14,094 nucleotides of DNA from a virus. Lineage: Duplodnaviria > Heunggongvirae > Uroviricota > Caudoviricetes. The position numbers and the translations under genes are program-made. Each line of letters opens with the position of its first letter. Position 1 is the stretch's first letter. This document shows positions 5,061 through 7,652 of this stretch, piece after piece. The notes under the pieces are model-generated. The model worked only from the letters and a program-made list of their open reading frames with translations. It was not told the origin of the DNA and made no database searches. The stretch spans positions 1-14,094 of the IMG/VR virus record IMGVR_UViG_2565956714_000002; one strand, 5' to 3'.

Positions 5061-5423
5061 TTAATGACCTGCTGCGCGTAGTTTTCCGTCAGGTTCACCG
5101 GCAAGAGTCAGTAATTGTCCCTGGTCTTCCTGCAGAATAGTCAGGCGACCACCGCGATTGACATACATCGGCGTTTCGGTGGTGTCTTCTTCGGAAATTT
5201 TCCCGCGGTTAGTCGGGCGAACATATGAGAGTTTGTGTTTGATTTTCACACGGTTCTCATCAAATGGTTCGATTTCCAGGTTGAGTGAGACCTTACCTTT
5301 GGTTTTCGTGTTCATCACACCGGAAGCGACTTCACTGAGAACTGCGCCGATTTTGGTTTCAAATACGCCGCCGTCCAGCTCCCCGATAAATGCCTGCACA
5401 TCAGTACTGCGTTCGCTAGCCAT
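5061..5423 (-). CDS. yfdP: Hypothetical early-left protein (YfdP-like), 120 aa
   Basis: Start set at ATG 5423 (MASERSTDVQAFIGELDGG...) with RBS GAGGAA 7 nt upstream. The 197-aa version in the ORF track is an N-terminal read-through into noncoding leader. It is the first gene of the leftward operon. Confidence 0.7.
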   Translation of the reverse strand: MASERSTDVQAFIGELDGGVFETKIGAVLSEVASGVMNTKTKGKVSLNLEIEPFDENRVKIKHKLSYVRPTNRGKISEEDTTETPMYVNRGGRLTILQEDQGQLLTLAGEPDGKLRAAGH

Positions 5424-5471
5424 TTTGCTGTTCCTCATCATATCGACCCTGCAAGGTCGGTTGGTTTCTCC

Positions 5472-5570
5472 ACAAAACAGAGAAGAACACCTGCGGTGGC
5501 AGCCGCCCGGATGGATTGGGTTATGAGCCCGTCGTCCGGTGATGCTCTTCTCTGTTTTGTAAAAAGAGCG
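5472..5570 (-). promoter_or_regulatory. BoxA-like motif followed by a large hairpin in the leftward early leader (candidate antitermination or processing element)
   Basis: On the minus-strand transcript the sequence reads CGCUCUUUUUACAA, then a perfect 15-bp stem (arms at 5472-5486 and 5546-5560) enclosing 59 nt. CGCUCUU is the core of nut and rrn boxA. Function is inferred only. Confidence 0.3.
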
Positions 5571-6024
5571 GTACCAGCCGGAAGCAAGTGTACAAACTGG
5601 TACCGCCAAAGCAGTGGCTGTTGTGGTGGGGTTGTCACTCAGGCGTATGGTCAACCTGACAATCCGGTGTCCTCAACGGGGAAAGAGTAACCCCGCCATA
5701 CTTACCGCCGCGCCATTTCGCGGATTACCACAACGCTGAGAGCACTTAGCCAGTTACGGCACCACACTTTGTCGCGGCTCCATAAATGCCCTCATCGTTG
5801 CACCCTGGTCTCTTCCCAGGCGTCAAACCGAATCGCCACGCTGGTTAGGCGTCTTATCAGCATCATCATTGACTTGCACATTCCGGCTACCTGGTTTGTT
5901 TGCCCGAGCAAGGAGTGGATTGTCCCCTTTAACGTCCCCAGACCGCTAACGACGCATGTGCCATACGCCGTGTTACAACCAAATTTTTTTTGAATCTTGC
6001 CTGCCTCATGTTTCTTTTGGATAC

Positions 6025-6052
6025 ATTATGTATCTCATGGGTACATTGTCAA
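6025..6052 (-). promoter_or_regulatory. Candidate pL-type leftward early promoter
   Basis: Read on the minus strand: TTGACA (6052-6047), 16-nt spacer, CATAAT (6030-6025). It overlaps a 17-bp operator-like dyad. Confidence 0.45.
6029..6045. promoter_or_regulatory. Operator-like 17-bp dyad (OL candidate), TGTATCTCATGGGTACA
   Basis: It shares the pattern TGTAY-N7-GTACA with two sites in the cI-cro intergenic region. It overlaps the candidate pL -10 and spacer, and also the separate perfect palindrome GATACATTATGTATC at 6020-6034. Confidence 0.45.
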
Positions 6053-6056
6053 GTAT

Positions 6057-6078
6057 AAAAAAACCTGCCGAAGCAGGT
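6057..6078 (-). terminator. Intrinsic terminator downstream of the repressor gene
   Basis: On the minus strand: ACCUGC-UUCG-GCAGGU (6-bp stem, UUCG tetraloop) followed by seven U (6063-6057). It begins 14 nt after the cI stop. Confidence 0.55.
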
Positions 6079-6091
6079 TCATATATATTGA

Positions 6092-6766
6092 TTAGGCCTT
6101 TATTGTGTATCTTCTTGGTTTTCCCGAGAAAATCACTGTACCAATTATAGAGCAATTACCGTTAATCTTAATGTAAGGCTCAGGCCAGTTTGGGTTTAAT
6201 GCTTTGAGATAACGCTGTGTTCCATCTTCTATCAATCGCTTGAAGGTGGTTTCGCCTGTATCGTGCATCAATGCAATAACGTCGTCACCGTGGCAGGCAG
6301 GGACTTCGGGATCAACAAAAATCATGTCTCCCGGGCGGTACTCATCAATCATTGAATCACCAATCACCCGCAAGATATAAGTCATTTCGCCACAGGGTAC
6401 AGGGCAGGGATAAGTTTCTGCTGTGCTCAAATCAACCTCAGAATAGCCAACTTCTTTCCATGCTCCGGCCTGTACCCATGATATGACAGGGACTAACGTT
6501 ATTTGTTTGTTAGTGATTGAAACATCAGGTTTTTTTGTGATGTTCGTTGTCTGGTGTTCTTGATCAAGCCATCCGACAGGCAGGTCGAAACATTTTTCGA
6601 TGTGCCGTGCCATGCTGTCACCGATATTTTTAGTAGCGCCATCCCCCATAAACCTGCTGGTTTGGGTTGGCTCGCGATCAATCATGGTGGCAAAGGATGA
6701 ATTTCCGCCAACACCATCTCTCAGTTTTCTGGCGTTAGACCGCCGGATGTCATGGATTGTTTTCAT
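6092..6766 (-). CDS. cI: CI-type prophage repressor with N-terminal HTH and C-terminal S24 (LexA-like) autopeptidase domain, 224 aa
   Basis: The C-terminal region VIGDSMIDEYRPGDMIFVDPEV ... GETTFKRL aligns by eye with lambda CI and LexA (Ser in GDSM, Lys in FKRL). A candidate Ala-Gly cleavage site lies in WVQAGAWK. It is divergent from the cro-like gene. There is no Shine-Dalgarno before the ATG at 6766, which suggests a leaderless mRNA. Confidence 0.9.
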   Translation of the reverse strand: MKTIHDIRRSNARKLRDGVGGNSSFATMIDREPTQTSRFMGDGATKNIGDSMARHIEKCFDLPVGWLDQEHQTTNITKKPDVSITNKQITLVPVISWVQAGAWKEVGYSEVDLSTAETYPCPVPCGEMTYILRVIGDSMIDEYRPGDMIFVDPEVPACHGDDVIALMHDTGETTFKRLIEDGTQRYLKALNPNWPEPYIKINGNCSIIGTVIFSGKPRRYTIKA

Positions 6767-7088: not shown

Positions 7089-7652
7089 ATGAGGCTAACC
7101 GTGGGTAAGCATCACTGGAAAGTAGAAAAACAGCCTGAGTGGTACGTGAAAGCTGTCAGAAAAACGATCGCGGCGTTGCCGGGGGGTTACGCTGAAGCTG
7201 CTGAGTGGCTGGATGTAACAGAGAACGCTTTATTCAACCGCCTTCGTGCAGATGGCGATCAGATTTTCCCGCTGGGATGGGCAATGATTTTACAGCGCGC
7301 GGCTGGCACTCACTACATTGCGGATGCTGTCGCACAGTCTGCTGGTGGGGTGTTTGTATCGCTTCCTGAAATTGAGGAAGTAGAGAACGCCGATATAAAC
7401 CAGCGCCTGCTGGAAGTCATCGAACAGATCGGGAGTTACTCAAAGCAGATTCGTTCGGCAATTGAAGATGGGGTAGTGGAGCCACACGAGCAGACAGCAA
7501 TTAATGATGAGTTGTATCTGTCAATTTCGAAGCTCCAGGAGCATGCAGCACTGGTCTACAAAATCTTTTGCGCTCCAGAAAAGAGTGACGCCCGCGAGTG
7601 TGCAGCTCCGGGCGTCGTGGCGTTTTGTGTCTGTGGAGAAACTAACGCATGA
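7089..7652 (+). CDS. CII-like regulatory protein (YdaT / phage CII family), 187 aa
   Basis: It follows cro as ydaT follows ydaS in Rac. An HTH-like segment is present (GGYAEAAEWLDVTENALFNRL). An alternative GTG start at 7101 has a better RBS (GAGG). The family assignment is from memory and is moderate. Confidence 0.55.
   Translation: MRLTVGKHHWKVEKQPEWYVKAVRKTIAALPGGYAEAAEWLDVTENALFNRLRADGDQIFPLGWAMILQRAAGTHYIADAVAQSAGGVFVSLPEIEEVENADINQRLLEVIEQIGSYSKQIRSAIEDGVVEPHEQTAINDELYLSISKLQEHAALVYKIFCAPEKSDARECAAPGVVAFCVCGETNA

Follow-up and report, generated by a model that had tools for sequence, protein, structure and literature searches.

The pL leader of an SfV-type prophage is probably a chain of conserved RNA modules with a DicF-type small RNA and a processing cassette

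The interval between the cI gene and the first leftward gene (positions 5424-6091) of a prophage of the SfV/cdtI/Ayreon type at thrW is probably the 5′ untranslated part of the pL transcript, built as a chain of conserved RNA modules that make up a DicF-type small RNA (sRNA) and RNA-processing cassette, and not a nut/N or put site. The analysis covered a 14-kb window, i.e. the whole stretch of DNA of 14,094 nucleotides. In order of transcription, module A would be followed by a clamp hairpin, module B, a GC hairpin with U-tract, module D, and finally a small hairpin with the ribosome-binding site. The terminator and module D would represent the constant unit of this chain, and modules A and B optional inserts in a variable slot, which holds small genes in other phages. 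The features are listed below with their positions in the window.

6766-6092: cI gene, its terminator at 6080-6061, with pL directly downstream.
6052-6025, minus strand: pL, TTGACA-16-CATAAT, sigma-70 type, matching at 11 of 12 positions in the promoter scan.
5790-5972, minus strand: module A, a structured RNA of about 185 nt with the invariant core GGUAGCCGGAAUGUGCAAG and four covarying helices.
5725-5807, minus strand: first of the long clamp hairpins, in which about 16 bp enclose an inner hairpin (fold of -36.6 kcal/mol, z = -3.0).
5612-5734, minus strand: module B, homologous to the sequence that directly precedes dicF in Qin, with 89-93% identity to positions 2607-2485 of the K-12 locus (L004).
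5561-5612, minus strand: putative sRNA 3′ domain and intrinsic terminator, UUUGGCGGUACCAG-loop-CUGGUACCGC-UCUUUUU, with a perfect 10-bp inverted repeat (5568-5577 / 5597-5606).
5467-5566, minus strand: module D, a three-way-junction RNA of 100 nt (model R1, 114 bits, E = 2.5e-33).
5560-5541 with 5491-5472, minus strand: helix P1 of module D, 20 continuous pairs including G-U, containing the 15-bp repeat noticed previously.
5539-5507, minus strand: P2 of module D, with the tip GGGCUCAUAACCC at 5530-5518.
5506-5493, minus strand: P3 of module D.
5444-5459, minus strand: small hairpin CGACCU-UGCA-GGGUCG, seen in folds, which separates module D from the ribosome-binding site.
5423-5421, minus strand: ATG of the first leftward gene, with the Shine-Dalgarno sequence GAGGA at 5436-5432, 8 nt upstream of the start.

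Both the candidate pL at about 6025-6052 and the gene start at 5423, as proposed in a preliminary description made from the letters of this DNA, agree with these assignments, and a promoter is annotated at the position equivalent to pL in the Ayreon record. Judged from the promoter, transcription should start near 6018. The pL leader is of about 595 nt, and the promoter scan identified no promoter-like sites inside it. The first leftward gene is YfdP-like (phrog_204), with a DUF2303 gene next.

The interval was found to be non-coding and without an N-like gene, as had been described: the 19 ORFs of at least 20 amino acids were all short, overlapped RNA helices, and were not conserved, and the antiterminator N family was absent when the proteins of the window were searched against Pfam and PHROGs. 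Three candidate small-protein ORFs, at 5438-5638 (minus), 5496-5690 (plus) and 6009-5929 (minus), were rejected, with covarying helices overlapping them and element length varying by non-multiples of three. An intact protein gene across the interval in homologous prophages had been named as evidence against a non-coding leader; promoter-proximal ORFs are present in SfV and in some E. coli prophages, but the terminator and the hairpin are non-coding everywhere. The covariance scan with Rfam that had been proposed, together with ARAGORN, gave no match over the interval. Across the window and 19 loci, the Rfam matches were tRNA-Thr, C4 and isrK in the window and DicF in K-12, and the tRNA searches of the window (Rfam, ARAGORN) recovered thrW (1369-1444) alone. 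The leftward transcript is structured across the interval, with folding beyond chance at z = -4.7 for 5424-5600 and z = -5.1 for the full leader, and none of the shuffled sequences folded as well.

The GC hairpin spans 5607-5561, with a 10-11 bp GC stem (arms 5606-5597 and 5577-5568), and was present in every fold computed. Together with its U-tract it would serve as an intrinsic terminator and as the 3′ end of a DicF-type sRNA. A hairpin with a T-tract precedes module D in 105 of 112 distinct copies, with a median hairpin energy of -22 kcal/mol, and the stems of the homologous terminators differ in sequence; termination is predicted. The preliminary description had read a boxA-like motif with CGCUCUU here. 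The string is indeed present, the minus strand at 5571-5558 being CGCUCUUUUUACAA, but CGCUCUUUUU is the descending arm and U-tract of the GC terminator hairpin, and the proposed boxA (5571-5561) corresponds to its tail, i.e. the last three stem bases and the U-tract.

The hairpin lies at exactly the position of DicF in the Qin prophage of K-12, where the RNA likewise belongs to a repressor-controlled leftward operon of a lambdoid prophage (ydfABC-dicF-dicB; RF00039). Position, stem and terminator tail are common to the two: UUUGGCGGUAyCAGUUU and CCGCyCUUUUU are found at the same position in both, with the stems reading GGCGGUACCAG...CUGGUACCGCUCUUUUU in the window and GGCGGUAUCAG...CUGCCGCCCUUUUU in DicF. 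Upstream, the 89-93% identity of module B extends over 107-123 nt, and the Qin stretch ends about 10 nt upstream of the Rfam DicF match at 2475-2424. Downstream, Qin likewise has a long helix, of 21 bp, which begins 3 nt past the DicF U-tract and closes a branched domain ending just before the dicB ribosome-binding site. The 190-nt DicF precursor has its 5′ end generated by RNase III, and this is the cut mapped in Qin, not one in the helix past DicF (PMC10448788), which speaks against the processing proposed below. An RNA of 190 nt ending at the DicF 3′ end would have its 5′ end about 6 nt upstream of the module B homology, and on this comparison module B would be the counterpart of the 5′ body of the precursor. 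A module B copy of 81% identity is also located just after Op(ban) in P7.

The loci differ in that the window has no ydfABC upstream, in that the next gene is yfdP-like instead of dicB, and in that module D is unrelated in sequence to the dicF-dicB spacer of Qin. Moreover, the hairpin of the window has another loop, and the DicF 5′ seed UUUCUGGUGACG is absent from it, being replaced by another. The Rfam DicF model (RF00039), which scores K-12 DicF at 76.7 bits, gave no match in the window at gathering score or at E ≤ 10. Because the model scores no hairpin here and the 5′ seed is missing, the sRNA may have other targets, or the element may be a terminator alone. In a crude RNAduplex test of the sRNA against ftsZ (-60 to +60), 0.86 of the shuffles were as good or better, in a setting of little power where DicF itself gave 0.13.

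Module D begins 0-1 nt past the U-tract of the putative terminator. A perfect 15-bp stem enclosing a 59-nt loop had been described for it; the arms (5472-5486 and 5546-5560) are indeed perfect, with 59 nt between them, but the helix is longer (20-25 bp) and closes a three-way junction, not a simple loop. In the whole-leader fold P1 reaches 25 pairs by pairing of the U-tract with GGAGA, for which the sequence GGAGAAA is available at 5471-5465. Among 27 sequences, 97.4% of the cells were paired, when slid controls gave 39-54%, and 11 pairs showed double changes against 4.5±1.2 in shuffles. With model R1, the single module D copy of the window scored 114 bits when read on the minus strand, but 37.7 bits on the plus strand; because of these scores and the G-U pairs, the module D RNA is assigned to the pL strand. 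The elements fall into length classes of 100-104 and 123-127 nt, which rules out a conserved reading frame.

Module D was identified in 2,492 of 5,426 complete E. coli genomes (46%), in copy numbers that follow the number of prophages up to a maximum of five per genome, and in many other Enterobacterales prophages; over 100 variants were found, with a weaker relative in the ban operon of P7. Carriers include Stx2c, cdt-converting, and Shigella serotype-converting phages. In these copies, the terminator stands before module D (in the 105 of 112 variants given above) and the ribosome-binding site of the first gene after it, and the first genes belong to two unrelated families, one YfdP-like and the other represented in Salmonella phage F1055 by a gene annotated as 'recombination-associated protein'. 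Closer to the promoter, the leader has a variable slot, occupied by orf33 in SfV and by two ORFs in another E. coli prophage. Neither Rfam nor RefSeq has an RNA entry for the 150-nt unit of terminator and module D, and in some RefSeq records a hypothetical or YfdP CDS covers it. A terminator followed by a covarying three-way-junction RNA has in this way stood unannotated in 46% of complete E. coli genomes. Module A, too, is without annotation or Rfam family. Literature searches on the motif, on phage initiator-tRNA mimics, on ST64B sRNAs, and on SfV antitermination gave nothing on these elements. The sRNAs of the Pas sRNA preprint are those of the late region.

In the mechanism we propose, the terminator would halt many of the pL transcripts, and those reading through would fold the 20-25 bp P1, engulfing the U-tract. 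The P1 duplex would then be a likely substrate for RNase III, whose cleavage there would part the sRNA precursor from the downstream mRNA and leave the latter beginning some 50 nt ahead of its start codon. The preliminary description had listed a processing site among its options, and this is the one favoured here; P1 is long and conserved with covariation, and its cleavage is predicted. In the known RNase III processing sites of T7, lambda and rrn, long duplexes lie between RNA units. Module D resembles the T7 early sites, the lambda N leader, the rrn stalks and the metY-nusA leader, in all of which duplexes of about 20 bp or longer separate functional RNA units of one transcript; P1 has 20 pairs, or 25 when the U-tract:GGAGA pairing is counted. 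It differs from them in that the helix is capped by a conserved three-way junction, not by a simple loop. Termination efficiency in the present phage, like accumulation of the sRNA and cutting by RNase III, is inferred from the sequence.

Temperate phages without N appear to build their early-left operons on a modular plan, the DicF arrangement of sRNA, terminator, long helix and first gene. Because the sRNA part is exchangeable, such phages may deliver many different regulators of host genes. For the question of delayed-early expression past the first terminator in N-less phages, concrete sequences are now at hand.

Two clamps punctuate the RNA modules of the leader, at 5807-5725 and at 5566-5467. 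The 3′ strand of the first, GUGCUCUCAGCGUUGUGG, is similar to that of module D, and model R1 gave a weak match on it (5807-5725, 9.7 bits, E = 0.74). Module A, which precedes it, was present once in the window (5972-5803, E = 7e-37 in nhmmer), and an alignment of 14 divergent homologues contained 28 pairs, nine of them with compensatory changes. In mEp390, module A is located downstream of the repressor gene in the leftward early leader, and the leader of Phytobacter and Kosakonia prophages has it ahead of terminator and module D. In P7/P1 it adjoins tRNA-Ile, between this gene and ban in the ban operon, and in Uetakevirus phages it is found directly upstream of tRNA-Arg, the stretch homologous to the first clamp ending at the tRNA-Arg 5′ end. 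On a rather doubtful reading, module A could be a second new RNA family common to lambdoid, P1-like and P22-like phages, with RNA polymerase or RNA processing as its target in long early operons that contain tRNA or sRNA genes.

Membership in the put family, also suggested previously, was not supported. A covariance model built from seven put RNAs (R2) recovered both HK022 sites, putL with 93.5 bits and putR with 45.6 bits, and had no match over 5424-6091 at E ≤ 10. A stretch ACGGCG...CAUGCGUCGnnAGCG common to putL and the 5′ hairpin of module A was considered as a sign of put homology and treated as chance, with the put model scoring nothing and the G-U wobble unconserved in module A. An RNA that works like HK022 put without being its homologue is a separate matter: module A, or P2/P3 of module D, would bind RNA polymerase, carry it past the sRNA terminator or later ones, and replace N in processive antitermination. 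We consider this unlikely. The leader shares with put the setting of a cis-acting structured RNA in the early leader of an N-less lambdoid phage, and module D has two adjacent stem-loops, as put does. With no N gene, a strong predicted terminator nevertheless stands between pL and the first gene, and module A, which recurs in long early operons (the mEp390 leftward leader and the ban operon of P7/P1), begins about 45 nt past the predicted start and upstream of that terminator, as putL lies just downstream of PL (PMC9378689). However, module D is reached some 450 nt into the transcript, past the terminator that it would have to suppress. Module A precedes it in just 33 of 255 distinct module D contexts and hence cannot be required for passing the terminator. 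No second copy of either module was found in the rightward operon within the window, which includes cro, cII-like and replication genes, and further along the leftward operon of the window, a simple scan gave no strong intrinsic terminator.

The processing cassette preferred here accounts for P1, but a processing role alone fails to explain the conserved tip of P2: since RNase III requires just a long duplex, the near-invariant ACGGGCUCAUnnCCCAAUC is left unexplained. The most conserved part of module D is the 14-nt sequence CGGGCUCAUAACCC (5531-5518), and all four tRNA-fMet genes of K-12 have exactly this sequence as their anticodon stem-loop, with the three G-C pairs that are the mark of initiator tRNA; that a phage leader RNA should carry an exact copy of this arm at its tip is a testable oddity. 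In a census of about 97 elements that used the P1 strand, and not the tip, as its anchor, about 90% had a G-C stem capped by a 7-nt loop with UCAU, and 53 had the exact CUCAUAA loop; the tip of the P7 copy is GGG-UUCAUAU-CCC. Module D might on these grounds be a functional mimic of the initiator-tRNA anticodon arm, either within the leader or as a free RNA of about 60-90 nt excised at P1, with the tip engaging the 30S P site with IF3, MetRS, or a tRNA-fMet-cleaving toxin, for instance VapC, which cuts tRNA-fMet in the anticodon loop; early-left expression would then be controlled, or the toxin detected or diverted. This is improbable in our judgement. Loop positions 37 and 38 vary (AA, UC, UA), with a U37 that is not tRNA-like in 27 elements, and CAU or U33 is lost in about 10%. 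Module D is not a tRNA: just three anticodon-stem pairs are common to both, neither ARAGORN nor Rfam RF00005 detected a cloverleaf in it, and the metY-nusA leader showed no likeness to it outside the anticodon loop. An abundant tRNA would hardly be titrated by a leader RNA, and the literature searches gave no precedent. As a tentative and rather doubtful extension, module D with its upstream terminator would constitute a new class of phage regulatory RNA, excised by RNase III at the basal helix and showing an initiator-tRNA anticodon-arm mimic to the translation-initiation machinery or to a tRNA-fMet-directed nuclease, with module A possibly a second new family.

A lambda-type nut site, with boxA and a boxB-like hairpin used by an unrecognised N-like protein, is very unlikely. 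The leader occupies the place of lambda nutL between pL and the first early-left gene, CGCUCUUU matches lambda boxA CGCUCUUA at seven of eight positions and has a GC hairpin with an A-rich loop behind it, and a 26-codon ORF rich in Arg and Lys is found at 6009-5929. However, the CGC of CGCUCUUU lies within the terminator stem, and CGCTCTT is kept in only 35 of the 112 distinct homologues, when the hairpin with T-tract is kept in 105; the others read CGUCCUUUUU, CGCCCUUUUU or GCACCUUUUUU, and a conserved, single-stranded boxA (CGCUCUUA or GCUCUUUAACAA) was not found among the 112. The nearest small hairpin tip (5530-5518) has a loop of 7 nt and stands at a distance of about 34 nt instead of 8-10 nt, and neither a boxB with a 5-bp stem and GNRA-like pentaloop at 8-10 nt nor an N protein with an arginine-rich motif was identified. 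The 26-codon ORF is not conserved; it runs into the covarying 5′ hairpin of module A and spans a mosaic boundary near 5990.

Least credible of all is a small mobile inverted-repeat element (MITE) of 89 bp, or the scar of a deleted N/kil region, both of which had been suggested, and for which the perfect 15-bp terminal repeats 89 bp apart and the variable promoter-proximal leader (orf33 in SfV, two ORFs in another prophage) might speak. All copies examined share one fixed context with no dispersal into unrelated ones, and their numbers track those of prophages. Changes in one arm are compensated in the other, with G-U pairs that are strand-specific, in keeping with the scores of the two strands, and the leader consists throughout of conserved modules that recur in other phages, not of decayed coding sequence.

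At the end of the leader, homologues of the small hairpin keep the (U)GCAG loop on stems of differing sequence, with the variants GGCGGUGGCAGCCGCC, GCGCCUGUGCAGGGGCGC and GGCCGCCAGUGCAGAUGGCCGCC.

The 668-bp interval upstream of the first leftward gene (5424-6091) is non-coding. Its most likely reading is a cassette for a DicF-type sRNA/terminator and for RNA processing, with two conserved RNA motifs absent from Rfam. The prophage of the window is inserted at tRNA-Thr(CGU) (1369-1444) and contains an integrase, the leftward early operon, an immunity region (S24 cI at 6766-6092, a cro-like gene and a CII-like gene), and then replication genes. Over 5300-6200, identity was 98-99% with phages 2H10, cdtI, Ayreon and a set of Stx2c-converting phages, and at least 80% of the interval was found in 895 complete E. 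coli genomes. The following features were located:

6052-6025, minus strand: pL (promoter scan, TTGACA-16-CATAAT), directly after the cI terminator at 6080-6061
5972-5790, minus strand: module A, four helices with the invariant core GGUAGCCGGAAUGUGCAAG
5807-5725, minus strand: clamp hairpin of 16 bp
5612-5561, minus strand: hairpin replacing the DicF of Qin, UUUGGCGGUACCAG-(19 nt)-CUGGUACCGC-UCUUUUU, a perfect 10-bp GC hairpin with U-tract
5566-5467, minus strand: module D, with basal helix P1, arm P2 (CCGGG/CCCGG, internal loop, then GGG-CUCAUAA-CCC) and arm P3 (GCGG..CCGC, or a longer insert)

On the basis of the promoter-scan match, leftward transcription is predicted to start near 6018, about 595 nt from the ATG at 5423, upstream of which lies GAGGA. 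Strong structure was predicted for the whole leader (z = -5.1) and for 5424-5600 (z = -4.7). None of the 19 ORFs of at least 20 codons overlapping the interval was supported, in agreement with the preliminary description, which had also placed the inverted repeat and the string CGCUCUUUUUACAA correctly. The sole N-like candidate within the interval, an Arg/Lys-rich 26-codon ATG ORF (6009-5929, minus strand, MRQARFKKNLVVTRRMAHASLAVWGR) beginning about 9 nt past the predicted transcription start, is probably not a gene, since part of it coincides with the covarying 5′ hairpin of module A and a mosaic boundary runs through it near 5990.

Module A, which is not present in Rfam, occurs in one copy in the window, and compensatory changes were observed at 9 of its 28 pairs among 14 divergent copies. 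It is followed by the clamp hairpin, the 3′ strand of which resembles the 3′ strand of P1. A put-type antitermination element, suggested earlier for this leader, was not recovered by the put model, which finds both putL and putR of HK022. Module A may be an antiterminator non-homologous to put; against the put type, neither module A nor module D has a copy in the rightward operon, and module D is located after the terminator.

The boxA-like string is part of a terminator located where Qin has DicF. The window hairpin has the 5′ arm UUUGGCGGUAyCAGUUU and the tail in common with DicF. It is without the DicF 5′ seed and loop, and the Rfam DicF model gave no score on it. Among 112 distinct homologous leaders, a stable hairpin (median -22 kcal/mol) with at least four T's directly before the next element was found in 105, with varying stem sequences, whereas CGCTCTT was present in only 35, which are close relatives of the window. 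What is conserved is thus the terminator; the boxA-likeness of the string, which forms the terminator tail, is a by-product. A nut/N arrangement is not supported by conservation or spacing, and N is absent. At six loci from several genera (L007, L011, L026, L030, L033, L042), the terminator hairpin before module D is of a different type; GA(U/A)GAUAAUGUUCUG is shared by these hairpins, either in the 3′ arm or in the loop, so the DicF slot may be occupied there by a second sRNA family.

The 15-bp repeat is the base of module D, a conserved three-way junction. Loci encoding relatives of the first gene (one genome per species) were combined with viral contigs scanned in two independent searches, one for the P2 tip motif and one for the 3′ strand of P1, resulting in over 100 distinct variants from Escherichia, Shigella, Salmonella, Enterobacter, Kosakonia, Phytobacter, Mangrovibacter, Leclercia, Superficieibacter, Pseudocitrobacter and others. 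All follow a common plan, i.e. P1 of 19-20 bp, P2, P3 and UGGAGAA, followed by a small (U)GCAG-loop hairpin and then the ribosome-binding site. In an alignment of 27 sequences, 97.4% of cells pair and double changes occur at 11 of 33 pairs, a number reached by none of 500 shuffles (4.5±1.2); with partner columns slid as a control, pairing falls to 39-54%. Frequent U-G pairs and the model scores (114 bits on the minus strand, 37.7 bits on the plus strand) assign the RNA to the pL transcript, and the element lengths (100-104 and 123-127 nt) are incompatible with a reading frame. Since the first gene after module D belongs to two unrelated families, YfdP-like or annotated as recombination-associated protein (Salmonella phage F1055), module D is not a gene-specific operator. 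The element has a fixed context and covaries as an RNA, and every module is conserved; this contradicts the earlier readings, a MITE or an N/kil deletion scar.

Hairpin and module D together (151 nt) were found in 2,492 of 5,426 complete E. coli genomes, in at most five copies each, and at these matches RefSeq holds no RNA annotation, listing either 'none' or a hypothetical CDS. In six E. coli RefSeq records (H37, H152, H159-H162), the CDS annotated over terminator and module D, either an extended YfdP or a 'hypothetical protein', is probably an over-call, the origin of which is illustrated by the 197-codon TTG ORF of the window (5061-5654). Between the ribosome-binding site and module D, a small hairpin (5444-5459, minus strand) keeps its (U)GCAG loop across genera on stems that differ in sequence, and is a further conserved piece.

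All four initiator tRNA genes of K-12 have an anticodon stem-loop identical to the P2 tip plus one adjoining base (CGGGCUCAUAACCC, 5531-5518). In a census of some 97 elements, anchored on P1 and not on the tip, about 90% retained UCAU within a 7-nt loop that sits on G-C pairs. Loop positions 37 and 38 vary (AA in 60, UC in 27) and the motif is lost in about ten elements; the tip thus does not strictly mimic a tRNA. Its conservation goes beyond what processing alone would account for. Module D may conceal a new mechanism.

When the whole leader is folded, P1 grows to 25 bp through pairing of the U-tract with the conserved GGAGA. Qin has the same design: a 21-bp helix, beginning 3 nt past the U-tract of DicF, closes a branched domain whose end lies just before the dicB ribosome-binding site. 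Transcripts from pL stopping at the terminator would yield a DicF-type sRNA, and those reading through would form the long duplex, where a cut by RNase III would uncouple the sRNA precursor from the mRNA and set the mRNA 5′ end. In Buttiauxella (L013 1300-1500), a yfdP-like gene is preceded not by module D but by a homologue of the dicF-dicB spacer of K-12 Qin (L004 2424-2250; GUGGUGAAUGCGGCU..., CACCnGGAGGCACCnGGCAC), an arrangement by which the two structured post-sRNA domains appear interchangeable.

BLAST against phages and E. coli genomes divided the interval into pieces with separate distributions:

5971-5728: about 83% identical to DNA immediately upstream of the tRNA-Arg gene in Uetakevirus phages and prophages, and about 79% to the P1/P7 stretch between tRNA-Ile and ban
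5734-5612: module B, with 89-93% identity to DNA from the ydfC-dicB interval of the K-12 Qin prophage
5608-5424: common to SfV, SfIV and many prophages, with a core 85% identical in Salmonella ST64B

Owing to the module B piece, some match was obtained in 4,767 of the 5,426 genomes. The DicF precursor is 190 nt long with a 5′ end made by RNase III (PMC10448788); the Qin match starts about 6 nt inside this distance from the DicF 3′ end, and, approaching DicF from upstream, stops about 10 nt short of the Rfam match (L004 2475-2424). Within 1.6 kb upstream of module D, module A was present in only 33 and module B in only 17 of 255 distinct contexts, and the same promoter-proximal slot holds ORFs in SfV and another E. 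coli prophage. Terminator and module D form the constant unit, and the promoter-proximal part is a variable slot.

The P7/P1 ban operon (L005 5032-2501, minus strand) has, upstream of terB, a homologue of the dicF-dicB spacer from Qin. Relatives of three leader modules were also observed in it, and like the spacer homologue they are unannotated:

just after Op(ban): module B
between tRNA-Thr and terB: module D-like, a weaker copy in P7 (31.5 bits)
between tRNA-Ile and ban: module A

The P7 operon further contains a tRNA-like sequence (L005 about 3836-3746, minus strand; GGAGAGU...GGUUCGAUUCC...ACUCUCCGCCA) with a long variable arm and CUUGAAA loop, called neither by the record annotation nor by Rfam at gathering score.

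Two Rfam matches lie back to back inside ORF 7649-8485 of the window:

8009-8085, plus strand: isrK (63 bits)
8110-8197, plus strand: C4 antisense RNA (82 bits)

The region 8009-8197 is a P1 immI / Gifsy-1 isrK-type antirepressor control region. The ORF (278 codons) gave a match to the Ash protein family, and SfV and Ayreon annotate it as 'immunity region'. Its Pfam Ash domain (aa 117-210) overlaps both RNA matches; either the call of the CDS or the overlap of RNA and protein should be looked at again.
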